Assembly: GCF_003018235.1 (NCBI RefSeq)
Contig: NZ_CP027437.1
Origin: Escherichia coli
Lineage (GTDB): Bacteria > Pseudomonadota > Gammaproteobacteria > Enterobacterales > Enterobacteriaceae
Length of the DNA: 64,000 bases
Strand: one strand, 5' to 3'
The position numbers and the translations under genes were made by a program. Positions 1 to 34,185 of this stretch are shown in pieces. Position 1 is the first letter of the stretch. Each line of letters opens with the position of its first letter. Under the pieces are notes generated by a model. That model was not told the DNA's origin. It searched no databases and saw nothing but the letters and a program-made list of their open reading frames with translations.

Positions 1-2
1 AG

Positions 3-284
3 CGTCAGTATTGTCTGGAGAAAGGCGCGCCAGTCATCGAACAACATGCGGCGGATTTTGTCGCTAAACGTCTTGCTCCGGCATTACCGACTAATGACGG
101 TAAGCAAACCCCCATGCGCGGGCATCCGGTGTTTATCGCTCAGCACGCCACTGCAACCTGTTGTCGCGGTTGTCTGGCTAAGTGGCATAACATTCCGCAG
201 GGTGTTTCGTTAAGCGAGGAACAACAACGTTATATCGTGGCGGTAATCTATCACTGGTTGGTTATACAGATGAATCAGCCATGA
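3..284 (+). CDS. yneG: 3' end of a small conserved protein (DUF4186-like), partial at window edge
   Basis: Open frame from position 3 to TGA at 282-284; tail ...CCRGCLAKWHNIPQGVSLSEEQQRYIVAVIYHWLVIQMNQP. Assigned by synteny upstream of yneF-uxaB; sequence identity to YneG not verified. Confidence 0.55.
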   Translation, partial: RQYCLEKGAPVIEQHAADFVAKRLAPALPTNDGKQTPMRGHPVFIAQHATATCCRGCLAKWHNIPQGVSLSEEQQRYIVAVIYHWLVIQMNQP

Positions 285-422
285 TAATTGCGGAAAACGA
301 TAAAATAGCATTCCCAGGATATCTTTATTTGCCGCCGCTGTCAGCGAACATGCTATCCTTTATAAGAATTTACTTATTACGTTGAGATAATTGCCACCCG
401 CAATTGTATGGACAGATAATTA

Positions 423-1841
423 ATGCATGTACAGCCCATTTCAACTTTCCGTTTGTTCCAGGAAGGTCATCTGCTACGTAATAGCATCGCTATTTTTGCG
501 CTAACCACGCTGTTCTATTTTATTGGTGCAGAGTTACGGCTGGTTCACGAACTTTCTCTTTTCTGGCCGCTGAATGGCGTAATGGCGGGGGTGTTTGCCC
601 GCTATGTCTGGCTTAATCGACTGCATTACTATGCGATCAGTTATGTGGCAATGCTGGTTTATGATGCCATAACCACCGAATGGGGGCTGGTTTCACTGGC
701 TATCAATTTCTCCAATATGATGTTTATTGTTACCGTCGCCTTACTGGTCGCGCGGGATAAGCGTCTGGGGAAAAATAAGTACGAGCCAGTAAGTGCCTTA
801 CGGCTATTTAATTACTGTCTGATTGCCGCATTATTATGCGCTATTGTCGGGGCGATTGGTTCGGTCAGTATTGATAGTCTGGATTTCTGGCCTTTGCTTG
901 CCGACTGGTTCAGTGAGCAATTCTCAACGGGCGTGTTGATAGTGCCTTGTATGCTGACGTTGGCAATTCCTGGAGTGCTGCCGCGCTTTAAAGCAGAACA
1001 GATGATGCCCGCTATCGCGCTTATTGTGTCGGTTATTGCCTCGGTAGTCATTGGCGGAGCGGGGAGTCTGGCGTTCCCGCTGCCTGCATTAATCTGGTGT
1101 GCAGTGCGCTATACGCCGCAGGTAACATGTCTGTTGACCTTTGTCACCGGTGCGGTGGAAATCGTACTGGTGGCAAATTCGGTGATTGATATCTCGGTCG
1201 GTTCGCCATTCTCCATTCCAGAAATGTTCTCCGCACGTCTCGGTATTGCCACGATGGCGATATGCCCAATTATGGTTTCTTTTAGCGTGGCAGCGATCAA
1301 TTCGCTAATGAAGCAAGTTGCGCTGCGAGCCGACTTTGATTTTCTGACTCAGGTTTACTCACGGTCCGGTCTTTATGAGGCGCTGAAAAGTCCATCGCTG
1401 AAACAGACACAACATCTGACTGTCATGCTGCTTGATATCGACTATTTCAAAAGTATTAACGATAACTATGGACATGAATGTGGCGATAAAGTGTTAAGCG
1501 TGTTTGCAAGGCATATTCAGAAGATTGTCGGTGATAAGGGGCTGGTGGCACGAATGGGCGGCGAAGAATTTGCTGTTGCAGTGCCATCGGTGAATCCTGT
1601 CGATGGTCTGCTAATGGCGGAAAAAATCCGTAAAGGCGTTGAACTGCAACCGTTCACCTGGCAACAAAAAACGCTTTATCTCACGGTAAGTATTGGCGTC
1701 GGTAGTGGTCGCGCATCGTACCGAACGCTGACCGATGACTTTAATAAATTGATGGTCGAAGCCGATACGTGTCTGTATCGCTCGAAGAAAGATGGGCGCA
1801 ACCGTACCAGCACTATGTGTTACGGTGAGGAAGTTGTCTGA
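423..1841 (+). CDS. dgcF: Membrane-anchored diguanylate cyclase (GGDEF domain, GGEEF motif)
   Basis: 472-aa ORF; N-terminal multi-TM region then GGDEF domain with RMGGEEF. Start codon uncertain. Confidence 0.85.
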   Translation: MHVQPISTFRLFQEGHLLRNSIAIFALTTLFYFIGAELRLVHELSLFWPLNGVMAGVFARYVWLNRLHYYAISYVAMLVYDAITTEWGLVSLAINFSNMMFIVTVALLVARDKRLGKNKYEPVSALRLFNYCLIAALLCAIVGAIGSVSIDSLDFWPLLADWFSEQFSTGVLIVPCMLTLAIPGVLPRFKAEQMMPAIALIVSVIASVVIGGAGSLAFPLPALIWCAVRYTPQVTCLLTFVTGAVEIVLVANSVIDISVGSPFSIPEMFSARLGIATMAICPIMVSFSVAAINSLMKQVALRADFDFLTQVYSRSGLYEALKSPSLKQTQHLTVMLLDIDYFKSINDNYGHECGDKVLSVFARHIQKIVGDKGLVARMGGEEFAVAVPSVNPVDGLLMAEKIRKGVELQPFTWQQKTLYLTVSIGVGSGRASYRTLTDDFNKLMVEADTCLYRSKKDGRNRTSTMCYGEEVV

Positions 1842-2067
1842 CATCTTTATTCATTCAGAGCGATTTAAATGCAATGTGTTCTACCACTTTATGATCCAAG
1901 AAAAGGCGTTTTTCCTCGATTAAACCATGATCCGCGCCACACTTTTCTCATAAAACTGCTCATTAATCATCAGGAGTTGATCAAAACAGGGGTTCGGCGT
2001 ATTAAAGTTTGCTAACCTGTCGTACCAATTCAAACAGGTTGTATGACTAATCAGAAGGGAACCCATT

Positions 2068-3519
2068 GTGAAAACACTAAATCGTCGCGATTTTCCCGGT
2101 GCACAGTATCCAGAACGTATCATTCAGTTTGGTGAAGGTAACTTCCTGCGCGCCTTTGTTGACTGGCAAATCGATCTCCTGAATGAGCACACCGATCTGA
2201 ATTCTGGCGTGGTCGTTGTTCGTCCGATTGAAACTTCATTCCCGCCGTCACTGAGCACGCAGGATGGTCTGTATACCACCATTATCCGTGGCCTGAATGA
2301 GAAGGGTGAAGCGGTCAGCGACGCGCGTCTGATTCGCTCGGTTAATCGTGAAATCAGCGTCTACAGTGAATACGATGAATTCCTGAAACTGGCGCATAAC
2401 CCGGAAATGCGCTTTGTTTTCTCTAACACCACCGAAGCGGGTATCAGCTACCATGCGGGCGATAAATTCGATGACGCGCCAGCGGTAAGTTATCCGGCAA
2501 AACTGACCCGTCTGCTGTTCGAACGTTTTAGCCATTTCAACGGTGCGCTGGATAAAGGTTGGATCATCATCCCGTGTGAGTTGATCGACTACAATGGCGA
2601 CGCGTTGCGTGAACTTGTGCTGCGCTATGCGCAAGAGTGGGCACTACCAGAAGCATTTATTCAATGGCTGGATCAGGCTAACAGCTTCTGTTCTACGCTG
2701 GTGGACCGTATCGTTACCGGCTATCCGCGTGATGAAGTGGCTAAACTGGAAGAAGAACTGGGTTATCACGATGGTTTCCTCGACACCGCTGAACACTTTT
2801 ACCTGTTTGTGATTCAGGGGCCGAAATCCTTAGCGACTGAGCTGTGCCTGGACAAATATCCACTCAACGTGCTGATTGTTGACGATATTAAACCGTACAA
2901 AGAACGCAAAGTGGCAATCCTCAACGGTGCGCACACCGCGCTGGTGCCGGTGGCGTTCCAGGCAGGGCTGGATACCGTAGGTGAAGCGATGAACGATGCT
3001 GAAATTTGCGCATTCGTTGAAAAAGCCATCTACGAAGAAATTATTCCGGTACTGGATTTGCCTCGTGATGAACTGGAATCTTTCGCCAGTGCAGTCACCG
3101 GACGTTTCCGTAACCCGTACATCAAACATCAGTTGCTATCTATCGCCCTCAACGGTATGACCAAGTTCCGCACCCGCATCCTGCCGCAACTGCTGGCAGG
3201 GCAGAAGGCAAACGGCACACTTCCGGCGCGCCTGACTTTCGCATTAGCGGCATTGATTGCGTTTTATCGCGGTGAGCGTAATGGAGAAACATATCCGGTA
3301 CAGGACGATGCACACTGGCTGGAACGTTATCAGCAACTCTGGAGCCAGCATCGTGACCGTGTTATCGGTACCCAGGAACTGGTAGCGATTGTGTTGGCAG
3401 AAAAAGACCACTGGGAGCAGGACCTGACGCAAGTGCCTGGTCTGGTCGAGCAGGTGGCTAATGACCTGGATGTGATTCTCGAAAAAGGAATGCGCGAAGC
3501 TGTACGTCCGTTGTGCTAA
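2068..3519 (+). CDS. uxaB: Altronate oxidoreductase (tagaturonate reductase)
   Basis: 483-aa ORF matching UxaB throughout ([30 protein letters not shown]...); GTG start with AAGGGA SD upstream. Confidence 0.95.
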
Positions 3520-11496: not shown

Positions 11497-12450
11497 ATGA
11501 CAATCAACGATTCGGTAATTTCAGAACAGGGAATGTGTGAAGAAGAACAGGTCGCGCGGATTGCGTGGTTTTACTACCACGACGGGCTGACCCAGAGTGA
11601 GATCAGCGATCGTCTCGGCCTGACCCGTTTGAAAGTGTCGCGATTACTGGAGAAAGGGCATCAATCCGGCATTATTCGCGTACAGATTAATTCTCGCTTT
11701 GAAGGCTGTCTGGAATATGAAACACAATTACGTCGTCAGTTTTCGCTGCAACATGTCCGGGTGATCCCAGGGCTTGCGGATGCTGATGTCGGCGGGCGAC
11801 TAGGGATAGGCGCGGCGCATATGTTGATGAGTTTACTTCAACCACAACAGATGCTGGCGATTGGTTTTGGCGAGGCAACCATGAATACGCTGCAACGCTT
11901 AAGTGGTTTTATTTCGTCACAGCAAATTCGACTGGTCACGCTCTCCGGTGGAGTCGGTTCTTATATGACGGGTATCGGGCAGCTTAACGCGGCGTGCAGT
12001 GTGAATATTATTCCGGCTCCGTTGCGGGCATCCTCCGCTGACATTGCCCGTACGCTAAAAAATGAAAATTGCGTCAAAGATGTTCTGCTAGCCGCGCAAG
12101 CAGCGGATGTGGCGATTGTCGGCATTGGGGCTGTGAGTCAACAAGACGACGCAACAATCATTCGCTCCGGCTATATCAGCCAGGGCGAACAGTTAATGAT
12201 TGGTCGAAAAGGGGCTGTTGGCGACATTTTAGGCTACTTTTTTGATGCAAAAGGTGACGTTGTCACGGATATCAAAATACATAACGAACTGATTGGCTTA
12301 CCTTTAAGCGCGCTGAAGACTATTCCCGTCCGGGTTGGCGTGGCAGGGGGAGAAAATAAAGCCGAAGCAATTGCCGCTGCAATGAAAGGCGGTTATATCA
12401 ACGCACTGGTTACCGATCAGGATACTGCAGCGGCGATTTTACGTAGTTAA
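11497..12450 (+). CDS. lsrR: Lsr operon transcriptional repressor (SorC family)
   Basis: 317-aa ORF, N-terminal HTH; divergent from lsrA. Confidence 0.95.
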
Positions 12451-12528
12451 ATTTGCATGACCTTATTACCGGGAATGATGGAGAACGTACAGAGGAACAG
12501 ACAGAACGCATAAGCCGAGGATAATCTA

Positions 12529-23296: not shown

Positions 23297-24100
23297 ATGA
23301 AAAGCGTACTTGCAGCAGCGGCTATGTCGCTTGTTATTTCTGATTTTGCTAATGCTGAGGAAACAAGAGGTAAAGCTATGATGAAAATAGAACCGTCAGC
23401 GATTTCGGAAGCTGATATTCGTTCCGTCTCACCGGCTCTCGCGCGCTTTGGTCGCGAAGCTATTACTGAAGATCTGTGGACACGCGACGCCCTCTCACCG
23501 AGGGATCGTAGTGTGGTGACCGTCGCCATGCTGATTGCCCGCAACCAGCCTGCCGAGCTTAAGCACTATATTGACGTCGCTCTCGATAGCGGCGTGACGC
23601 CAGCGGAATTATCAGAAATCATTACCCATCTGGCGTTCTACTCAGGTTGGCCAAATGCAATGTCAGCCGTCAGCGTGACCAAAGCAGTATTTGAAACTCG
23701 TGGCGTCACGCCAGATGCGCTTCCTGACGCTTCTCCGGACCTGCTTCCTCTCAATCAGGAAGCAGAAAAGCAGCGTTCAGAGACAGTGGAAAAAAATGTT
23801 GGCCCAATATCTCCAGGCCTGGTTAAATTCACTGCTGATCCACTCTTCCTGGATCTATGGCAAAGACCCGCGCTGAAACCCCGCGACAGAAGCCTGATTA
23901 CGGTCAGCGCCTTAATCGCATCCGGACAGAGCGCGCAGATTGGCTATCACCTCAATAGAGCAATGGATAATGGACTTTCTGTTGAGGAAGCTGGTGAGAT
24001 CGTTACCCAGGCCGCCTTCTATGCTGGCTGGCCAAACGCATTTACCGCTGCTCCGGTTGTGGGAGAGGTGCTAAACAATCGATCATCGAGTAAAAGGTAA
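23297..24100 (+). CDS. Secreted protein with two carboxymuconolactone-decarboxylase (CMD/AhpD-like) domains
   Basis: 267-aa ORF; signal peptide (MKSVLAAAAMSLVISDFANA|EE); internal duplication (...HLAFYSGWPNAMSAV... and ...QAAFYAGWPNAFTAA...). Confidence 0.7.
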   Translation: MKSVLAAAAMSLVISDFANAEETRGKAMMKIEPSAISEADIRSVSPALARFGREAITEDLWTRDALSPRDRSVVTVAMLIARNQPAELKHYIDVALDSGVTPAELSEIITHLAFYSGWPNAMSAVSVTKAVFETRGVTPDALPDASPDLLPLNQEAEKQRSETVEKNVGPISPGLVKFTADPLFLDLWQRPALKPRDRSLITVSALIASGQSAQIGYHLNRAMDNGLSVEEAGEIVTQAAFYAGWPNAFTAAPVVGEVLNNRSSSKR

Positions 24101-24149
24101 CATTACCGAACACTAAAACTTGACGCACATCACAACATTAGAACGAACA

Positions 24150-24234
24150 GTTCATGAACCAATAAGCGTAACATCGAGTGATTTATGGACAGCGTTTAAC
24201 ACAGTTATGAACCAAAACTGAGTTCATAACTGTG
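24150..24234. promoter_or_regulatory. Palindromic motif cluster: 10-bp palindrome GTTCATGAAC and a perfect 13-bp inverted repeat with 9-bp spacer
   Basis: GTTCATGAAC at 24150-24159; CACAGTTATGAAC (24200-24212) / GTTCATAACTGTG (24222-24234). No T-tract follows, so operator-like rather than terminator-like. Confidence 0.4.
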
Positions 24235-24514
24235 AGTTTGAATCGCCATTTGATTAATATCCATTTAAAACAGTTTGTTATGCTGTTTCTGGTGCTGAAG
24301 TCAATTATGTATATCCCTCAAACCCAGAATAGTTAAATGGAATTTGAGTGATGCGAAGCGATTTTCCAGTCGTCGTTATTACTTCAGGGTTCCAGAACAT
24401 AAAGCCTCTCCTCTTTCATGATTGGCCTGTGCATACCGGATATAGGCTGGCTGGTATGCAGGTTTGCCGTTTGCCGCATCTTCCCTGCGTTGAAGAGTCA
24501 GGCTGGCAAACCGC

Positions 24515-24769
24515 GTGCAAATGAACACCCCCACTTTCCATCAACACTTCAGACAGCTTGCGGGAATGAGTCCACTCCGGTATCAGAAATGGCTACGCCT
24601 CAATGAAGCCAGGCGACTGATGCTGAATGAACATTACGATGTCACCACTGCAGCCTATGCTGTCGGTTACGAAAGCTTATCCCATTTCAGTCGGGAATAT
24701 TCGCGGATGTTTGGAGAGTCACCTAAGAGAGATATTACCGGGTTAAGAAAGTCTGTCGGTCAGCTTTAA
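24515..24769 (+). pseudogene. C-terminal fragment of an AraC/XylS-family regulator (second HTH only)
   Basis: 84-aa ORF with the AraC signature region (...GYESLSHFSREYSRMFGESPKR); no ligand-binding domain or first HTH in any upstream frame. Confidence 0.6.
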
Positions 24770-25202
24770 TAAACCCTGCACTTATCTGTTTAGAGCAATT
24801 CCGTGTTAGTTACACCAGTCAAACATTAACCATAGCTAATGTTTTATAGCCATATAAACCATTGGCCGCTCTTGACCTTTCCTGACACTTCCCTTGTTCG
24901 CAATAATATTCTGTTTAGTCGCTGTTTATAAATAACATGCATAATGAAATCGTAATGTTATTTAGCGACATAAAATGTCTTTGCAAATACCCTCTACAAC
25001 AAGTGCTGCAATAAACTTGTTGTGATTAGGTGTCCTTGTAATTTAAAGATATTATCGTTCTTCGTGAAATGTAATAACCCTGGAAACTATATTCTCAGGG
25101 CAATATCCCATCAAGAATGATTCTTGTTTTATAAGCAATAACAGAATGACTTAATTGTTAACTTTCTTTATTCAGCTACTTAAATATAAATTTTGGAGAA
25201 TT

Positions 25203-25766
25203 ATGAAACTCAAACATGTCGGTATGATTGTCGTTTCTGTGTTGGCGATGTCGTCTGCTGCGGTAAGCGCAGCCGAGGGTGATGAATCAGTAACGACCAC
25301 TGTTAATGGCGGTGTTATTCATTTTAAAGGTGAAGTGGTAAATGCCGCTTGTGCGATTGATTCAGAATCAATGAACCAAACGGTTGAGCTGGGTCAGGTC
25401 CGTTCTTCTCGTCTGGCTAAAGCGGGTGACCTCAGCTCCGCCGTTGGCTTCAATATCAAGCTGAATGATTGTGATACCAATGTTTCCAGTAATGCAGCTG
25501 TTGCATTCCTGGGTACTACTGTCACCAGTAATGACGATACGTTAGCGCTGCAGAGTTCAGCGGCAGGCTCTGCCCAAAATGTCGGTATTCAAATTTTGGA
25601 CCGTACGGGTGAGGTATTAATACTTGATGGTGCCACTTTTAGCGCTAAAACTGACTTGATTGATGGCACGAATATACTGCCGTTCCAGGCTCGTTATATT
25701 GCTCTCGGGCAGTCAGTAGCTGGTACTGCAAACGCTGATGCGACCTTCAAAGTTCAATATCTATAA
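25203..25766 (+). CDS. Fimbrial major subunit (F9/Fml-type pilin)
   Basis: 187 aa from ATG 25203 (GGAG SD 4 nt upstream); signal peptide then pilin domain with a conserved Cys pair. Confidence 0.85.
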
Positions 25767-25807
25767 TTCAATCTTAAGGTGGCTATACGTCATCTGAAAT
25801 TGAAACA

Positions 25808-25836
25808 GGGTGTGTGTGGCATGGCTACGCACACCC
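25808..25836 (+). other. Intra-operon stem-loop between pilin and chaperone genes
   Basis: GGGTGTG(TG)-loop-(CG)CACACCC, 7-9 bp GC-rich stem, no T-tract. Confidence 0.4.
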
Positions 25837-26128
25837 GAGCAATTCACCAATGTTCATCTCATTATTAATGAGGAATAGTTTGTGTTTTGGAGCGGTATGA
25901 AAAAATCACATAATATCTAAACGATCAATAAACAACAGTAGTTAAACTTACTGTTATTTAAAATATTTACTTTGTAGCAAGGTTTTCCTATTAAAAGAGA
26001 ACCAACATTTATTACAAACGCATTAAGTCTGGAAACCCGGCGAGTCGCCAATGTATTAGCAACATTTACCGATTGTCTGATGTAACGGTTTCCCCGCTTA
26101 TCCTCTTAACACATGGAGAATGCATCAG

Positions 26129-26839
26129 ATGCAAACTACGCGTACCCCCTACTCTATTTCCTTTATGGCGACAGTGTTACTTTTATTGCTCTTTGCTTGC
26201 CATAGCACCGTTGCCAACGCAGCTGTCGCACTGGGTGCGACGCGGGTAATTTATCCGGCAAACCAGAAACAGGTTTTATTGCCTGTCACGAATAATGATC
26301 CTGCCAGTGTCTATCTCATTCAGTCATGGATAGAAAATGAGGGTGACCAAAAAGACACCCAGTTTGTCATTACGCCACCGCTTTTTTCCATGCAAGGTAA
26401 AAAAGAGAATACGCTGCGGATAATCAACGCCACTAATCATCAGTTACCAGGCGACCGTGAAAGCCTGTTCTGGGTTAATGTTAAAGCTATTCCTGCTATG
26501 GAAAAAGATCAGAAGAATGAGAATACATTACAGCTGGCAATTATTAGCCGCATAAAAATGTTTTATCGCCCCACGAACCTGGCAATGGCACCTGAAGAAG
26601 CGCCTGCAATGCTTCGGTTTCGTCGCAGCGGCAGCAAACTCACTCTTATTAATCCAACGCCCTACTTCATTACCGTAACAAATATGAAAGCAGGAAATAG
26701 CAATCTCCCAAACACCATGGTGCCGCCAAAAGGTGAAGTATCGGTGGATATCCCGCATGCTGCAACCGGGGATATCAGTTTTCAGACGATCAATGATTAC
26801 GGTGCATTAACTCCGCGTATTAAGGCAACCATGCAATAA
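26129..26839 (+). CDS. Periplasmic fimbrial chaperone (PapD-like)
   Basis: Track ORF 26120..26839; signal peptide plus PapD-like fold. Start 26129 preferred on SD spacing; 26120 is the in-frame alternative. Confidence 0.85.
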   Translation: MQTTRTPYSISFMATVLLLLLFACHSTVANAAVALGATRVIYPANQKQVLLPVTNNDPASVYLIQSWIENEGDQKDTQFVITPPLFSMQGKKENTLRIINATNHQLPGDRESLFWVNVKAIPAMEKDQKNENTLQLAIISRIKMFYRPTNLAMAPEEAPAMLRFRRSGSKLTLINPTPYFITVTNMKAGNSNLPNTMVPPKGEVSVDIPHAATGDISFQTINDYGALTPRIKATMQ

Positions 26840-26880
26840 GCCAGTGACCTAATTAATAATAAACTCAATCGGAATTAAAA

Positions 26881-29532
26881 ATGACAGCCTTTCGTGCCGC
26901 ATTTAAGGCATATCGTATGCATCAGGTGTTACTACTGCCTCGCTTTGCACGGCTTACCATTGCCCTTGGCTTAGCAACTGCGGTATTTCCCGTTGACGCA
27001 GAGTATTATTTTAATCCACGGTTTTTAAGCAATGATCTTGCTGAATCTGTCGATTTATCCGCCTTTACTAAGGGACGCGAGGCACCATCTGGTACATATC
27101 GGGTCGACATTTATTTGAACGACGAATTTATGACTAGTCGGGATATTACTTTTATTGCAGATGATAATAACGCAGATCTCATCCCATGCCTGAGTACAGA
27201 TCTTCTTGTCAGTCTTGGCATAAAAAAATCAGCGTTATTAGACAATAAAGAACATTTGGCAGAAAAACATGTGCCGGACAACAGCGCATGCACACCACTT
27301 CAGGATCGTTTGGCCGACGCATCAACTGAGTTTGATGTTGGTCAGCAACATTTGTCACTCTCCGTTCCGCAAATTTATGTTGGCAGAATGGCTCGCGGCT
27401 ATGTTTCTCCTGATCTGTGGGAAGAAGGAATAAATGCTGGGCTTCTAAACTATAGTTTTAATGGTAATTCTATTAATAATCGTAGTAACCATAATGCAGG
27501 AAAATCCAACTATGCATATTTGAATTTACAGAGTGGCATCAACATTGGTAGTTGGCGACTGCGCGATAACTCAACGTGGAGTTATAACAGTGGGAGTAGC
27601 AATTCATCTGACAGCAATAAATGGCAGCACATCAATACGTCGGCTGAACGTGACATTATTCCCTTACGCTCACGCTTAACGGTAGGTGATAGTTATACCG
27701 ATGGCGATATTTTTGATAGTGTGAACTTTCGTGGCCTCAAAATAAATTCAACAGAAGCGATGTTGCCCGATAGCCAACATGGTTTCGCTCCGGTGATTCA
27801 TGGTATTGCCCGCGGCACCGCACAAGTGAGTGTAAAACAGAATGGATACGATGTTTATCAGACTACTGTCCCACCCGGCCCTTTTACTATTGATGATATC
27901 AACTCTGCGGCCAATGGTGGTGATCTGCAAGTAACCATAAAAGAGGCAGACGGCAGTATTCAGACATTATATGTTCCTTATTCGTCTGTTCCGGTTCTCC
28001 AACGTGCTGGATATACGCGTTATGCGCTTGCCATGGGGGAATATCGTAGTGGAAATAACCTGCAAAGCTCCCCCAAGTTCATACAAGGTAGCTTGATGCA
28101 TGGACTGGAAGGAAACTGGACACCTTATGGCGGAATGCAAATTGCAGAAGATTATCAAGCCTTCAACCTTGGTATTGGTAAAGATTTAGGACTTTTTGGT
28201 GCCTTTTCTTTCGATATCACGCAGGCCAATACGACACTTGCAGATGGCACCCGTCACAGCGGGCAATCGATTAAATCCGTCTACAGCAAATCCTTCTACC
28301 AGACGGGAACCAATATCCAGGTCGCAGGATATCGCTATTCTACGCAAGGTTTTTATAACTTATCCGACAGTGCCTACAGTCGAATGAGTGGTTACACCGT
28401 CAAGCCTCCTACCGGAGACAGCAATGAGCAGACACAATTTATTGATTATTTTAATCTGTTCTACAGTAAGCGTGGTCAGGAACAAATAAGCATCTCTCAG
28501 CAGCTTGGAAATTACGGTACGACATTTTTCAGTGCCAGTCGCCAAAGTTACTGGAACACGTCACGCAGCGACCAGCAAATATCATTTGGATTAAATGTGC
28601 CGTTTGGTGATATTACGACTTCGCTGAATTACAGCTATTCCAATAATATATGGCAAAACGATCGGGATCATTTACTTGCTTTTACGCTTAATGTTCCCTT
28701 CAGTCATTGGATGCGTACAGACAGTCAGTCGGCATTTCGTAATTCAAACGCCAGTTACAGTATGTCAAACGATTTGAAAGGCGGCATGACCAATCTATCG
28801 GGGGTTTATGGCACTCTGCTGCCGGATAATAACCTGAATTATAGCGTTCAGGTCGGTAACACCCACGGGGGTAATACATCGTCTGCCACCAGTGGTTACA
28901 GTTCTCTTAATTATCGTGGAGCTTACGGTAATACTAATGTCGGTTACAGTCGGAGTGGTGACAGCAGCCAAATTTATTACGGAATGAGTGGTGGGATTAT
29001 TGCTCATGCTGATGGCATCACCTTTGGTCAGCCGCTGGGCGACACAATGGTTCTGGTTAAGGCTCCTGGCGCTGATAATGTCAAAATAGAGAACCAGACC
29101 GGAATTCATACCGACTGGCGTGGCTATGCCATATTACCATTTGCGACAGAATATAGAGAAAATCGTGTCGCTCTTAACGCGAATTCCCTTGCAGATAATG
29201 TTGAACTGGATGAAACCGTTGTCACTGTCATCCCAACTCACGGTGCTATTGCCAGAGCAACATTTAATGCACAAATCGGCGGGAAAGTATTAATGACGTT
29301 GAAGTACGGTAATAAGAGCGTTCCATTCGGTGCAATTGTCATACATGGTGAGAATAAAAATGGCAGCATTGTCGCGGAAAACGGTCAGGTTTATCTGACT
29401 GGACTTCCACAGTCAGGGAAATTACAGGTTTCATGGGGCAAAGATAAAAACTCAAACTGTATTGTCGAGTACAAGCTTCCTGAAGTTTCTCCTGGTACCT
29501 TACTGAACCAGCAGACAGCAATCTGTCGCTAA
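26881..29532 (+). CDS. ydeT: Fimbrial outer-membrane usher
   Basis: 883-aa full-length usher ORF with signal peptide. Confidence 0.9.
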   Translation: MTAFRAAFKAYRMHQVLLLPRFARLTIALGLATAVFPVDAEYYFNPRFLSNDLAESVDLSAFTKGREAPSGTYRVDIYLNDEFMTSRDITFIADDNNADLIPCLSTDLLVSLGIKKSALLDNKEHLAEKHVPDNSACTPLQDRLADASTEFDVGQQHLSLSVPQIYVGRMARGYVSPDLWEEGINAGLLNYSFNGNSINNRSNHNAGKSNYAYLNLQSGINIGSWRLRDNSTWSYNSGSSNSSDSNKWQHINTSAERDIIPLRSRLTVGDSYTDGDIFDSVNFRGLKINSTEAMLPDSQHGFAPVIHGIARGTAQVSVKQNGYDVYQTTVPPGPFTIDDINSAANGGDLQVTIKEADGSIQTLYVPYSSVPVLQRAGYTRYALAMGEYRSGNNLQSSPKFIQGSLMHGLEGNWTPYGGMQIAEDYQAFNLGIGKDLGLFGAFSFDITQANTTLADGTRHSGQSIKSVYSKSFYQTGTNIQVAGYRYSTQGFYNLSDSAYSRMSGYTVKPPTGDSNEQTQFIDYFNLFYSKRGQEQISISQQLGNYGTTFFSASRQSYWNTSRSDQQISFGLNVPFGDITTSLNYSYSNNIWQNDRDHLLAFTLNVPFSHWMRTDSQSAFRNSNASYSMSNDLKGGMTNLSGVYGTLLPDNNLNYSVQVGNTHGGNTSSATSGYSSLNYRGAYGNTNVGYSRSGDSSQIYYGMSGGIIAHADGITFGQPLGDTMVLVKAPGADNVKIENQTGIHTDWRGYAILPFATEYRENRVALNANSLADNVELDETVVTVIPTHGAIARATFNAQIGGKVLMTLKYGNKSVPFGAIVIHGENKNGSIVAENGQVYLTGLPQSGKLQVSWGKDKNSNCIVEYKLPEVSPGTLLNQQTAICR

Positions 29533-29545
29533 GGAACAATAGATT

Positions 29546-30076
29546 ATGAAATACAATAACATTATTTTCCTCGGTTTATGTCTGGGGTTAACCACCTATT
29601 CTGCTTTATCCGCAGATAGCGTTATTAAAATTAGCGGGCGCGTCCTCGATTATGGCTGCACAGTCTCATCGGATTCGCTTAATTTTACCGTAGATCTCCA
29701 AAAAAACAGTGCCAGACAATTTCCAACGACCGGTAGCACAAGTCCAGCCGTCCCTTTTCAGATTACGTTAAGTGAATGCAGTAAAGAGACAACGGGGGTT
29801 CGGGTTGCATTTAACGGTATTGAGGATGCAGAAAATAATACTCTGTTGAAACTGGATGAAGGAAGCAATACGGCCTCCGGTTTGGGTATAGAAATACTGG
29901 ACGGAAATATGCGTCCGGTGAAATTGAATGACCTTCATGCCGGGATGCAGTGGATCCCACTGATACCAGAACAGAACAATATTTTGCCTTACTCCGCTCG
30001 TCTGAAGTCAACTCAGAAGTCCGTCAATCCGGGACTGGTGAGGGCTTCGGCAACCTTTACCCTTGAATTTCAATAA
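29546..30076 (+). CDS. ydeS: Fimbrial minor subunit
   Basis: 176-aa ORF with signal peptide and pilin-like domain. Confidence 0.85.
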   Translation: MKYNNIIFLGLCLGLTTYSALSADSVIKISGRVLDYGCTVSSDSLNFTVDLQKNSARQFPTTGSTSPAVPFQITLSECSKETTGVRVAFNGIEDAENNTLLKLDEGSNTASGLGIEILDGNMRPVKLNDLHAGMQWIPLIPEQNNILPYSARLKSTQKSVNPGLVRASATFTLEFQ

Positions 30077-30088
30077 TCAGAGTCAGAT

Positions 30089-30592
30089 ATGAAAAGACTT
30101 CACAAGAGGTTCCTGTTAGCTACGTTTTGCGCGTTATTCACAGTAACTCTCCAGGCCGCCGATGTCACTATCACTGTTAATGGTCGGGTAGTCGCTAAAC
30201 CCTGCACTATTCAAACCAAAGAAGCTAACGTTAATCTCGGGGATCTTTATACGCGCAATCTGCAACAACCTGGTTCTGCATCAGGCTGGCACAATATTAC
30301 TTTGTCATTAACCGATTGTCCGGTTGAAACAAGTGCAGTGACGGCAATCGTGACAGGTTCAACTGACAATACGGGTTATTACAAAAATGAAGGTACTGCC
30401 GAAAATATTCAGATAGAGCTAAGGGATGACCAGGATGCGACGTTAAAAAATGGCGATAGCAAAACGGTTATTGTTGATGAGATCACTCGTAATGCACAGT
30501 TTCCACTTAAGGCAAGAGCTATCACGGTGAATGGAAACGCAAGCCAGGGAACGATCGAGGCGCTAATCAATGTGATCTATACCTGGCAATAA
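30089..30592 (+). CDS. ydeR: Fimbrial minor subunit
   Basis: 167-aa ORF with signal peptide and pilin-like domain. Confidence 0.85.
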   Translation: MKRLHKRFLLATFCALFTVTLQAADVTITVNGRVVAKPCTIQTKEANVNLGDLYTRNLQQPGSASGWHNITLSLTDCPVETSAVTAIVTGSTDNTGYYKNEGTAENIQIELRDDQDATLKNGDSKTVIVDEITRNAQFPLKARAITVNGNASQGTIEALINVIYTWQ

Positions 30593-30652
30593 CATCAATT
30601 TGATTTTTTTTTGCCTCCTTTTTAAATCAATTTTTTAACCTTAGGATATATC

Positions 30653-31567
30653 ATGGGTAAAACATTCAGTATAAAGGTTCTGTTCAGTATTTATCTTCTA
30701 TTAATGGCAGGCAAAGTTTTTGCCTTCAGTTGTAATGTCGATGGCGGGTCAAGTATTGGAGCAGGTACAACCTCTGTTTATGTTAATCTCGATCCTGTAA
30801 TACAACCGGGCCAGAATCTGGTTGTAGACTTGTCTCAGCATATAAGTTGCTGGAATGATTACGGCGGCTGGTACGACACTGATCATATAAACCTGGTACA
30901 AGGCTCAGCTTTCGCAGGCTCTCTACAGTCATATAAAGGATCGCTGTACTGGAATAATGTGACCTACCCCTTCCCGTTGACGACAAATACTAATGTATTA
31001 GATATTGGTGATAAGACACCGATGCCATTACCGTTAAAACTCTATATTACCCCAGTCGGTGCGGCCGGTGGAGTTGTCATAAAAGCCGGGGAAGTTATTG
31101 CCCGTATTCATATGTATAAAATTGCCACGTTAGGAAGCGGAAATCCGCGTAATTTTACGTGGAATATTATTTCAAATAACAGTGTTGTTATGCCAACAGG
31201 CGGCTGCACCGTTGATAGTCGTAATGTCAACGTGAATCTCCCGGACTTTCCTGGAAGCGCAGAAATACCCCTTGGCGTATATTGCTCAAGTGAACAAAAG
31301 CTCTCATTTTATCTTTCGGGTGCTACCACTGACAGTGCCAGACAAGTGTTTGCTAACACAGCACCAGATGCAACAAAAGCATCGGGAGTGGGTGTCTCTC
31401 TGATGCGTAATGGAAAAATACTGGCTACGGGAGAAAATGTTTCCCTCGGAACAGTAAATAAGAGCAAAGTACCTCTGGGTTTAAGCGCAACCTATGGACA
31501 AACAGGAAACAAGGTTGCAGCCGGAACAGTTCAGTCAGTCATTGGTGTCACTTTTATCTATGAATAA
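30653..31567 (+). CDS. ydeQ: FimH-like two-domain fimbrial tip adhesin
   Basis: 304-aa ORF; signal peptide, N-terminal lectin-like and C-terminal pilin-like domains; last gene of the operon. Confidence 0.85.
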
Positions 31568-31639
31568 TTGTGATTTTGACATTAGTCTATGCGTTCCATT
31601 CACGAAAATTGTGCGGATAATTATTTTGTGAAGGCTATT

Positions 31640-31657
31640 ATCCTACACTTGTAAGAA
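31640..31657. promoter_or_regulatory. Putative EvgA box upstream of ydeP
   Basis: ATCCTACA-CT-TGTAAGAA, 17/18 match to my recollection of the published EvgA box, TTCYTACA-NN-TGTARGAA; ydeP is a known EvgA target. Confidence 0.5.
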
Positions 31658-31905
31658 AATCCGCGCACAATTGAAGCCAGAGTCTTATTTTTTATATTGA
31701 AAAACATGTTAATTTAAACACTATGAGAGATGATGCTTAACTTATCGTATTTATACCATTCTATTATTTAACAATAATAGATTAAAAATAGAAAGAGAGT
31801 AGTCCCCTACTCTTATATATCCAGGTTGATGATAAACCTATTATATATACTGTGCATCATCGCTATTACAAATCCTAATAATTCATTTCCACACAGGATA
31901 AGCAG

Positions 31906-34185
31906 ATGAAGAAAAAAATTGAATCCTACCAGGGAGCTGCCGGTGGTTGGGGTGCTGTTAAATCCGTAGCAAATGCAGTACGTAAGCAGATGGATATACG
32001 CCAGGATGTTATTGCCATGTTTGACATGAATAAGCCAGAGGGCTTTGACTGTCCGGGATGTGCATGGCCAGATCCTAAGCACAGTGCGTCATTCGACATT
32101 TGTGAAAACGGCGCAAAAGCAATCGCCTGGGAAGTCACGGATAAGCAGGTAAATGCCTCTTTCTTTGCTGAGAATACGGTTCAATCATTACTTACCTGGG
32201 GAGATCACGAGCTTGAGGCTGCGGGGCGTCTCACTCAGCCTTTGAAATATGATGCCGTCAGCGACTGTTACAAGCCATTAAGCTGGCAACAAGCTTTCGA
32301 CGAAATAGGCGCACGCCTTCAAAGCTATAGTGATCCCAATCAGGTTGAATTCTATACTTCGGGCCGCACTTCCAATGAAGCTGCCTTTCTTTATCAGCTT
32401 TTTGCCCGTGAATACGGGAGCAATAACTTTCCCGACTGTTCCAACATGTGCCATGAACCGACCAGTGTGGGTTTGGCAGCGAGTATCGGTGTAGGTAAAG
32501 GGACCGTGTTGCTGGAAGACTTTGAGAAATGCGATTTAGTCATTTGCATTGGGCATAACCCTGGTACAAACCACCCTCGCATGTTGACTTCGTTGCGCGC
32601 TTTAGTGAAACGGGGAGCGAAAATGATCGCCATCAATCCTCTACAGGAACGTGGCCTGGAGCGATTTACCGCACCGCAAAACCCGTTTGAAATGCTGACG
32701 AACTCTGAGACTCAGTTGGCCAGTGCCTACTACAACGTGCGCATTGGTGGTGATATGGCGTTGCTCAAGGGGATGATGCGCCTGTTAATTGAGCGCGATG
32801 ATGCTGCAAGCGCCGCAGGTCGGCCCTCATTGCTGGATGACGAATTTATTCAAACGCATACCGTCGGCTTTGACGAGCTACGCCGTGACGTTCTCAATTC
32901 CGAGTGGAAAGATATCGAGCGTATTTCTGGACTAAGTCAGACTCAAATCGCCGAACTGGCTGATGCATATGCCGCTGCCGAACGCACCATTATCTGTTAC
33001 GGAATGGGGATCACTCAGCACGAACATGGTACCCAGAATGTACAGCAACTGGTCAATCTGCTGTTGATGAAAGGTAACATTGGCAAGCCTGGTGCGGGTA
33101 TCTGCCCACTACGAGGTCACTCTAATGTACAGGGCGACCGAACCGTCGGTATCACCGAGAAACCGTCTGCAGAGTTTCTGGCTCGCCTGGGTGAGCGCTA
33201 TGGTTTCACCCCACCTCATGCACCTGGACATGCTGCAATTGCCAGCATGCAAGCAATATGTACGGGGCAGGCTCGAGCATTGATCTGCATGGGGGGCAAC
33301 TTTGCACTGGCAATGCCAGATCGGGAAGCGAGCGCTGTACCGTTAACGCAATTAGACCTGGCGGTACACGTTGCCACTAAGCTTAACCGCTCTCATCTGC
33401 TGACCGCACAGCATAGCTATATTCTGCCGGTTCTTGGGCGTAGCGAGATTGACATGCAAAAAAGCGGTGCGCAGGCGGTAACCGTTGAGGATTCAATGTC
33501 GATGATTCATGCCTCGCGTGGCGTGTTAAAACCCGCCGGTGTAATGCTGAAATCAGAGTGTGCAGTGGTCGCGGGAATCGCGCAGGCAGCACTACCCCAG
33601 AGCGTGGTAGCCTGGGAGTATCTGGTGGAAGATTATGATCGCATTCGCAATGACATTGAAGCTGTGCTGCCAGAGTTCGCCGACTATAACCAGCGCATCC
33701 GTCATCCTGGAGGTTTTCACCTGATAAACGCAGCTGCTGAAAGGCGCTGGAGGACGTCGTCAGGTAAGGCTAATTTCATTACCAGTAAAGGGCTGTTAGA
33801 AGATCCCTCTTCAGCGTTTAACAGTAAGCTAGTCATGGCGACAGTACGCAGTCACGATCAGTACAACACGACGATTTATGGTATGGATGATCGCTATCGA
33901 GGGGTATTCGGTCAACGAGATGTGGTCTTTATGAGTGCTAAACAAGCTAAAATTTGCCGTGTAAAAAACGGCGAAAGAGTTAATCTTATTGCGCTTACGC
34001 CAGACGGTAAGCGAAGCTCACGCCGCATGGATAGATTAAAAGTGGTCATTTACCCTATGGCTGACCGCTCACTGGTGACCTATTTTCCAGAATCGAATCA
34101 CATGCTAACACTTGATAACCACGATCCATTAAGTGGCATTCCTGGCTATAAAAGTATTCCGGTTGAATTAGAACCATCAAATTAA
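31906..34185 (+). CDS. ydeP: Molybdopterin oxidoreductase (formate-dehydrogenase-like), acid-resistance associated
   Basis: 759-aa ORF ([25 protein letters not shown]...). Confidence 0.95.

Follow-up and report, generated by a model that had tools for sequence, protein, structure and literature searches.

A six-gene locus of Escherichia coli that is very probably an intact chromosomal F9 (Fml, yde) chaperone-usher fimbrial operon

The six-gene F9 operon of E. coli, its disruption in K-12, its promoter, its repression by H-NS, and its expression at 20 °C have been described by Wurpel et al. 2014 (PMC3966885). The published f9 site lies between hipBA on the 5′ side, with a variable spacer, and ydeP on the 3′ side; 25 of 42 genomes have an intact operon, and K-12 is listed as 'disrupted', as are all phylogroup A strains (PMC3966885). 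A role for F9 in biofilm formation at low temperature was reported in the same study (PMC3966885), and the tip adhesin FmlH has been implicated in chronic colonization of the urinary tract and kidney (PMC5866590). The glycans reported as ligands are Gal-beta1-3GlcNAc for whole CFT073 fimbriae and TF/Tn for the FmlH lectin domain (PMC3966885, PMC5866590), and the plant glycan xyloglucan is reported as a ligand of O157 F9 (PMC7766294). The reported ligand specificities vary between studies and strains. The type 1 (fim) fimbriae share the same chaperone-usher logic. They have a fimI gene, an invertible promoter (fimS), and fimB/fimE, and are regulated by phase inversion, whereas F9 is regulated by H-NS and temperature (PMC3966885).

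I analyzed a window of 64,000 nucleotides from an E. coli chromosome (contig NZ_CP027437.1 of assembly GCF_003018235.1). With little doubt, positions 25203 to 31567 represent an intact chromosomal F9 (Fml, yde) operon. The operon is paralogous to the structural genes of the type 1 fim system but has neither fimI nor the fimB/fimE switch. The features are listed in Table 1.

Table 1. Features of the F9 locus in the window, with their coordinates and the evidence for each
Feature	Position	Strand	Evidence or details
f9 promoter	24916-24952	+	-35 TAGTCG 24916-24921, 18-bp spacer, -10 CATAAT 24940-24945
5′ untranslated leader, AT-rich, 251 nt	24952-25202	+	promoter mapping
Segment absent from MG1655, 3,281 bp	25025-28305 (ambiguous by 1 nt)		BLAST, alignment, K-12 annotation
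Major pilin (F9 major subunit, FimA-like), 187 aa	25203-25766	+	Pfam Fimbrial, E 6e-31
Non-coding spacer, 362 nt, 37% GC	25767-26128	+	position of fimI in the fim operon; stops in six frames
RNA hairpin, 13-bp stem, 3-nt loop	25808-25836	+	GGGUGUGUGUGGC-AUG-GCUACGCACACCC, 42 nt after the pilin stop
Periplasmic chaperone (FimC-like), 236 aa	26129-26839	+	Pfam PapD_N+PapD_C
Outer-membrane usher (FimD-like), 883 aa	26881-29532	+	Pfam PapC_N+Usher+PapC_C, E 8e-200
Minor subunit YdeS (FimF-like adaptor), 176 aa	29546-30076	+	Pfam Fimbrial
Minor subunit YdeR (FimG-like adaptor), 167 aa	30089-30592	+	Pfam Fimbrial
Tip adhesin FmlH/YdeQ, 304 aa	30653-31567	+	Pfam FimH_man-bind+Fimbrial

Gene content, chromosomal position, and comparison with other strains

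The initial annotation had described a complete and tightly spaced operon of six intact genes of the F9/Fml type. It was found that all six ORFs lie on the plus strand with no internal stop codon, and that the span given for them runs exactly from the ATG of the pilin gene (25203) to the stop codon of the adhesin gene (31567). Their order from the ORFs and Pfam domains (major subunit, chaperone, usher, minor subunit, minor subunit, and adhesin) is that of the published F9 definition. The assignment to F9 is borne out by a lectin domain 100% identical to that of the FmlH structures in the PDB, by the position between hipBA and ydeP, and by the presence of the CFT073 promoter motifs. The tight spacing applies to four of the five junctions (41, 13, 12, and 60 nt) but not to the pilin-chaperone junction, where the genes are 362 nt apart.

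Each of the six proteins can be aligned over its entire length with the corresponding solved Fim structure, and FimA, FimC, FimD, FimF, FimG, and FimH are their one-to-one best solved homologues (E-values from 1e-38 to 0). The pilin has a signal peptide and a GGAG ribosome-binding site, matches FimA over its full length (E 8e-68), and is identical to WP_001296758.1 (strain 144; O157:H7 FRIK944). The chaperone matches FimC and SfaE over its full length with an E-value of about 1e-87; its start codon at 26129 fits the PGAP annotation and the GGAG spacing, while an alternative ATG is present at 26120. The usher, rightly described as full-length, has the PapC_N, Usher, and PapC_C domains and matches FimD with 1154 bits (query residues 18-883 on chain residues 23-878). 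Thus, a two-domain PapD-like chaperone and an usher with N-terminal, barrel/plug, and C-terminal domains are both present, as in Fim-like (gamma-1 type) systems. The lengths of all six genes equal the PGAP-annotated lengths in four independent E. coli genomes, and exact copies of all six proteins exist in public collections, the number of contigs with each protein ranging from 22 to over 1,000. With 22 contigs, the usher is a relatively uncommon allele, and it has S at residue 70 where strain 144 has P.

Could this integrity be an artefact, produced by chance ORFs, a chimeric assembly, or frameshifts that escaped detection? The only relevant point in its favor is that no entry in the complete-genome collection exceeds 99.5% identity over the 6.7-kb query. 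Independent assemblies are nevertheless 99.93-99.99% identical to the window over 16-22 kb, and the Logan assembly SRR2102939 covers 22.6 kb of it with 3 mismatches. Since the domain E-values are as low as 1e-200, the gene lengths recur in four independently annotated genomes, and six of six proteins have exact public matches, an artefact is exceedingly improbable.

The operon lies between hipBA (5′, about 18.2-20.1 kb) and ydeP (3′, 31906-34185), the latter being followed by safA-ydeO. This position agrees with the annotation of K-12 and strain 144. The immediate 5′ region contains a fragment of an AraC-family gene and a 4-kb oxidoreductase cluster. An autotransporter gene next to the operon is truncated.

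The initial annotation had described K-12 as having neither the pilin nor the chaperone gene and only a fragment of the usher gene, and the comparison with MG1655 confirmed this. The alignment of MG1655 with the window breaks off at 25025 and resumes at 28306. The deletion of the intervening 3,281 bp took out the pilin and chaperone genes together with part of the 5′ UTR and usher codons 1-475, so that only ydeT′, ydeS, ydeR, and ydeQ are kept and no intact operon exists in MG1655. The ydeT gene of K-12 is annotated as a pseudogene of 408 codons without the N-terminus. The ydeQRST remnant lies at the same site and retains the promoter along with ~73 nt from the start of the leader. Its products are highly similar to those of the window: 404 of 408 residues are identical for usher codons 476-883, 173/176 for YdeS, 165/167 for YdeR, and 296/304 for YdeQ. 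K-12 cannot assemble the pilus alone, since it has no pilin, no chaperone, and none of the first 475 usher codons, all of which are present in the window. The same deletion junction is present in 1,374 of 5,426 complete E. coli genomes (25%), while 3,600 (66%) match 80% or more of the operon query as one continuous piece, as judged by alignment coverage only.

The F9/Fml locus of CFT073 (c1931-c1936) has the same hipBA/ydeP flanks, the same promoter hexamers, and the same 251-nt leader as the window. The differences are only allelic except in the 5′ region, which was published as variable (PMC3966885). A B2-type locus (strain 1448) shows about 96-98% DNA identity in the six genes. In the F9 locus of EHEC O157:H7, the gene lengths are identical and a few amino acids are substituted (identities of 187/187 for the pilin, 299/304 for the adhesin, and 870/883 for the usher).

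Promoter, leader, and pilin-chaperone spacer

The transcription start is a G residue at 24952, 251 nt 5′ of the pilin ATG, and the promoter thus lies upstream of the span first assigned to the operon. The hexamers, their spacing, and the distance from the start to the ATG exactly match the CFT073 promoter mapped by 5′-RACE (PMC3966885). Five intact loci and K-12 share an unchanged -10 hexamer and start G. Of these six loci, five have TAGTCG as the -35 hexamer, and 2017-02-2CC has TAGACG. The real promoter was located only via the published motifs and not by a consensus scan, which returned 16 promoter-like sites between 24300 and 32000 against 19.6 in shuffled sequences. The corresponding scan of 24300-32000 for terminator-like sites returned 7 against 6.7 and was equally uninformative, and folding of 31565-31700 gave no convincing hairpin with a T-run 3′ of the adhesin gene (z = -0.8). 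In CFT073, the region bound by H-NS lies in the leader and just upstream of it (PMC3966885). H-NS may bind at the leader of the present isolate as well.

A 15-nt inverted repeat (24630-24644 and 24945-24959, 93% complementary) encloses 300 nt including the promoter. A fimS-like invertible switch was considered and rejected. With 24540-25060 as the query, no inverted promoter arrangement was found among the matches listed (5,120 matching of 5,426 genomes), all of which are collinear or truncated, and no recombinase ORF exists upstream of the operon in the window. Because of these results, and because the left arm lies in the AraC-family gene fragment, which B2-type loci lack, the inverted repeat was judged to have arisen by chance.

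The spacer between the pilin and chaperone genes has a mean column identity of 95% in five loci. A fimI remnant was rejected, since all six frames are full of stop codons, the GC content is 37%, and no ORF is present. I found that folding of 25767-25880 gives an MFE of -42.4 kcal/mol (z = -5.7 versus shuffles), with a hairpin that is invariant in four of the five loci. The sole substitution occurs in the allele with 90% identity and is non-compensatory, providing no covariation; thus, it is thermodynamics and conservation that argue for the hairpin. No Rfam family matched at the gathering thresholds anywhere in the 64-kb window. It is conceivable, though rather doubtful, that the spacer and the hairpin constitute an uncharacterised post-transcriptional module setting the excess of pilin over the chaperone, usher, and tip subunits. 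If the hairpin does have such a role in pilin stoichiometry, it may act as a partial terminator or as an mRNA-stabilising element, perhaps together with an internal promoter. Separately, termination and anchoring of the F9 pilus would have to proceed without a FimI-like subunit. Neither the hairpin module nor the FimI-less termination is addressed in PMC3966885 or PMC5866590.

Tip adhesin and relation to type 1 fimbriae

The adhesin consists of a signal peptide (residues 1-24), a lectin domain (about 25-184), and a pilin domain (about 185-304), and it is therefore a two-domain lectin adhesin as first proposed. Residues 25-184 are identical at 160 of 160 positions to the crystallised lectin domain of FmlH (PDB 6AOW; also 5LNE and 6AOX). 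The ligand-contact residues reported for FmlH, which contact the TF antigen, are all present (F1, Y46, D53, K132, N140, and R142). The lectin domain scores 362 bits against FmlH versus 275 bits against FimH, the latter being at the level of a paralogue. Judged by its sequence, the tip adhesin qualifies as FmlH with a Gal/GalNAc-type lectin domain and not as FimH. FmlH of F9 binds Gal/GalNAc, whereas FimH of type 1 fimbriae binds mannose (PMC5866590), and the pocket encoded in the window is predicted to follow FmlH.

Is the locus instead a type 1 (fim) operon with a mannose-binding FimH? The pilin is called 'fimA' by PGAP, the FimH_man-bind Pfam domain matches with an E-value of 6e-78, and the closest solved paralogue of every protein is a Fim protein. 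However, the lectin domain is that of FmlH with its contact residues, and FimH is merely paralogous to it. The 362-nt gap with stops in all frames occupies the place of the absent fimI gene. Recombinase genes are also absent, and the promoter is inverted in none of the matches listed (5,120 genomes). Finally, the locus adjoins ydeP and is not at the fim locus. A type 1 operon was thus refuted by the tests of the adhesin, fimI, the switch, and the position, and this identity retains practically no probability.

Expression of the F9 operon and its meaning for the isolate

The dN/dS values of the six genes, compared with alleles at 90-98% DNA identity, range from 0.03 to 0.30, showing that all of them are under purifying selection. 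With the genes intact as well, the suggestion that the isolate potentially makes a functional pilus is a fair reading. In the F9 pathway expected for this isolate, transcription would proceed from the conserved sigma-70 promoter through the 251-nt leader, with H-NS silencing at 37 °C and expression at about 20 °C as extrapolated from the published CFT073 work. Sec would export five pilus subunits and the chaperone. The FimC-like chaperone would fold and cap the subunits via donor-strand complementation, and the FimD-like usher would polymerize them through donor-strand exchange, beginning with the adhesin and continuing with the FimG-like subunit, the FimF-like subunit, and many copies of the pilin. 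FmlH at the tip would then bind terminal Gal, GalNAc, and Gal(beta1-3)GalNAc-type glycans, and not mannose.

A functionally silent operon with intact genes, a cryptic and decaying locus that is kept by drift only or carries a subtle regulatory or missense defect and never yields a pilus, is unlikely in this isolate. In favor of silence, H-NS represses F9 in CFT073, and no F9 is detectable at 37 °C in the wild type (PMC3966885). Between a quarter and a third of E. coli genomes have an eroded locus, the phylogroup A strains examined are all disrupted, and the truncation of the neighboring autotransporter gene shows that decay is under way in the region. Against silence, wild-type CFT073 makes F9 pili at 20 °C (PMC3966885). 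In the window, dN/dS is well below 1 in all six genes, no damage is seen in the promoter motifs, ribosome-binding sites, or signal peptides, and the lectin domain has the sequence of a protein with demonstrated function. This isolate may therefore express and assemble the pilus, but F9 is barely expressed under standard laboratory conditions in the strains studied.

The F9 operon found here is already known, and the interpretation in the initial annotation adds nothing beyond the literature. Since the full-length operon occurs in about two of every three complete E. coli genomes, the finding is unsurprising and opens no new question, and its significance is little outside annotation. FmlH is a vaccine and glycomimetic drug target, and the lectin domain encoded in the window has the same sequence as the drug-target structure. 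The isolate retains the full gene set for F9/Fml pili, unlike K-12 and other phylogroup-A-type strains.

The six genes and their family

Six consecutive ORFs without internal stops run on the plus strand from 25203 to 31567, exactly the start and end proposed in the initial annotation. That annotation described six intact genes with a full-length 883-aa usher, and this was borne out by the ORFs, by their Pfam domains (see the table), and by full-length alignment of every protein to its type 1 counterpart of solved structure (FimA, FimC, FimD, FimF, FimG, and FimH). The usher, for example, aligned from residue 18 to 883 with residues 23-878 of the FimD chain. Frameshifts and premature stops were sought and none was found; the annotations of four other complete genomes give the same length for each of the six genes. 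The exact sequences of all six proteins are present in public collections, on 22 contigs for the usher, 99 for the adhesin, and at least 1,000 for each of the others. Since the window matches independent assemblies at 99.93-99.99% over 16-22 kb, its sequence is real and natural. The chaperone ORF opens mechanically at 26120; the PGAP start at 26129 has the better GGAG spacing. The genes are tightly spaced, as had been stated, at four junctions (41, 13, 12, and 60 nt), but the first junction, between pilin and chaperone, is long (362 nt).

Genes of the F9/Fml operon and of the interval upstream of it
Feature	Coordinates	Strand	Length	Pfam domains
Pilin	25203-25766	+	187 aa	Fimbrial
Chaperone	26129-26839	+	236 aa	PapD_N + PapD_C
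Usher	26881-29532	+	883 aa	PapC_N + Usher + PapC_C (E 8e-200)
Minor subunit YdeS (FimF-like)	29546-30076	+	176 aa	Fimbrial
Minor subunit YdeR (FimG-like)	30089-30592	+	167 aa	Fimbrial
Adhesin FmlH/YdeQ	30653-31567	+	304 aa	FimH_man-bind + Fimbrial
Amidohydrolase fragment	within ~20130-24331		63 aa	
Flavodoxin-like NAD(P)H oxidoreductase	20846-21418			
Aldo/keto reductase	21421-22440			
ABM-domain protein	22556-23281			
Carboxymuconolactone-decarboxylase-family protein	23297-24100			

Residues 25-184 of the adhesin match the lectin domain of FmlH in its crystal structures (PDB 6AOW, 6AOX, 5LNE) at all 160 positions, and the residues reported to make contacts at and around the galactose of the TF antigen are all kept (F1, Y46, D53, K132, N140, R142). 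Downstream of the operon lie ydeP, safA, and ydeO, and some way upstream lies hipBA; this is the published context of f9 (PMC3966885). Thus, gene order, position, FmlH identity, and promoter all agree with F9/Fml, upholding the earlier assignment and its two-domain lectin adhesin. In contrast, the locus lacks fimI and fimS/fimB/fimE of the type 1 fim operon, and its adhesin is not FimH. By its sequence, the locus would work like type 1 pili but represents a separate member of the family, one that has been described before. Its organisation, distribution, regulation, disruption in K-12, adhesin structure, and ligands are already published (PMC3966885, PMC5866590; also PMC7766294, PMC8174762). 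The finding of an intact operon is correct and already known.

Promoter and non-coding elements

In CFT073, the f9 transcription start was mapped to a G that lies 251 nt ahead of the pilin ATG; the -10 is CATAAT and the -35 TAGTCG, separated by an 18-bp spacer (PMC3966885). Identical motifs lie in the window at 24916-24921 (-35), 24940-24945 (-10), and 24952 (start G); thus, the functional unit begins about 290 nt upstream of 25203. Neither the -10 nor the start G varies across five intact loci and K-12; the -35 reads TAGTCG in all six of these loci but the most divergent (strain 2017-02-2CC), where it is TAGACG. Generic promoter and terminator scans gave counts at chance level.

A 15-nt inverted repeat (14/15 complementary; arms 24630-24644 and 24945-24959, 300 nt between) brackets the promoter; its right arm overlaps the -10 at its end and also covers the transcription start. 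Its left arm lies inside a fragment of an AraC-family regulator gene immediately 5′ of the promoter (24515-24769; 84 C-terminal aa, HTH_18/HTH_AraC); the annotations of strain 144, O157, and K-12 all mark this gene as a pseudogene. An invertible promoter switch was considered and rejected: no inversion variant occurs among the matches listed (5,120 matching complete genomes) and no recombinase is nearby. The repeat is probably a chance one.

The pilin-chaperone spacer occupies the position of fimI in the fim operon, has 37% GC, and contains stops in all frames. A 13-bp stem-loop (25808-25836) lies 42 nt past the pilin stop; the surrounding 114 nt have a folding energy of -42.4 kcal/mol (z = -5.7). 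It is unchanged in four of five loci, with one non-compensatory substitution in the most divergent allele. In other pilus operons, hairpins follow the gene for the major subunit, and by analogy this one may raise pilin mRNA relative to the downstream genes. No Rfam family matched anywhere in the 64-kb window, and no clear terminator was found 3′ of the adhesin gene.

Disruption in K-12, prevalence, and neighbouring regions

The alignment of the K-12 MG1655 genome to the window breaks off after 25024 and resumes at 28306, from where identity is 97.4%. The 3,281 bp in between (25025-28305) are missing from K-12 and comprise the pilin and chaperone genes, the first 475 usher codons, and the greater part of the leader. 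K-12 ydeT is annotated as a pseudogene of 1,227 nt that lacks its N-terminus, and ydeS, ydeR, and ydeQ are intact downstream of it; the retained proteins are 97-99% identical to those of the window. The statement that K-12 lacks the pilin and chaperone and keeps a usher fragment is thus correct. The segment left of the deletion (24332-25024; 84.5% identity to K-12) has diverged far beyond the operon itself.

Among 5,426 complete E. coli genomes, 5,358 matched a 6.7-kb operon query in part, and 3,600 (66%) held at least 80% of it in one piece. A 240-nt probe spanning the K-12 junction matched fully in 1,374 (25%). These counts agree with the published figures: the operon was intact in 25 of 42 genomes and disrupted in every phylogroup A strain, and PCR detected f9 in 61% of ECOR and 80% of a UPEC collection (PMC3966885). 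The intact operon is the common, ancestral state and K-12 the derived exception.

The ~4-kb interval that separates hipA from the F9 upstream region (~20130-24331), not in K-12, is the "variable 5′ region" of f9 in the literature (PMC3966885). Strain 144 has an extra 6.7 kb in this interval, not in the window (a SIR2-family protein, an ISNCY transposase remnant, a LysR regulator, and others). Upstream of hipBA, an autotransporter gene (14651-18202; ECSE_1600 family, ESPR signal peptide) is cut to 1,183 aa at a junction near 18179; in strain 144 the protein runs to 1,806 aa and includes autochaperone, pertactin, and beta-barrel domains. Relative to strain 144 and K-12, the window lacks about 1.8 kb here, so that this neighbouring adhesin, unlike the intact F9 operon, is incomplete and without its translocator. 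The 1,183-aa product is also called in two comparison loci (L005 and L007). A close relative of the window (GCA_012128275.1; 99.93% over 19 kb) carries filamentous-phage-like genes (Zot, secretin, DUF2523; its positions 1-3244) in place of hipBA and the autotransporter, which suggests prophage insertion or replacement.

Allelic variation and capacity for pilus formation

The pilin is identical in O157:H7 FRIK944 (L010, 1704-2267; 187/187 residues, 11 synonymous differences, dN = 0) and differs at only two residues from that of the 90%-identity allele. FimA is usually regarded as variable; the F9 pilin is much more tightly conserved by comparison. That divergent allele, in strain 2017-02-2CC (NZ_AP027764.1, 1704-8067; 90.5% DNA identity overall), is fully intact, with dS of 0.18-0.48 and dN/dS of 0.03-0.2. 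Its upstream neighbourhood differs (an ankyrin-repeat protein, IS481 and hydrolase fragments), and it may stem from a deep-branching Escherichia lineage or an old recombination event. From strain 144, the window differs by 0-2 positions per gene from pilin through ydeR, and by 15 in the adhesin gene (11653-12567 of that locus, L002; 98.4% identity), four of which alter an amino acid in the signal peptide. The pattern suggests recombination, with a breakpoint close to the 5′ end of ydeQ/fmlH.

Pairwise Nei-Gojobori comparison with FRIK944, strain 1448, and the 2017-02-2CC allele gave a dN/dS of 0.03-0.30 for each of the six genes, which indicates that all are under purifying selection. The sequences also show signal peptides, ribosome-binding sites, and N-terminal donor strands. 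The suggestion of a potentially functional pilus fits the intact genes, these ratios, the signal peptides, and the ribosome-binding sites. From established chaperone-usher knowledge and the cited papers (PMC3966885, PMC5866590), the promoter is predicted to be repressed by H-NS at 37 °C and expressed at about 20 °C in this isolate. The subunits would cross the inner membrane through Sec, the chaperone would cap them by donor-strand complementation, and donor-strand exchange at the usher would polymerise them. FmlH would stand at the pilus tip and bind Gal, GalNAc, TF, or Gal-beta1-3GlcNAc glycans. The genetic capacity for an F9 pilus is complete in this isolate, and expression of the pilus is putative.
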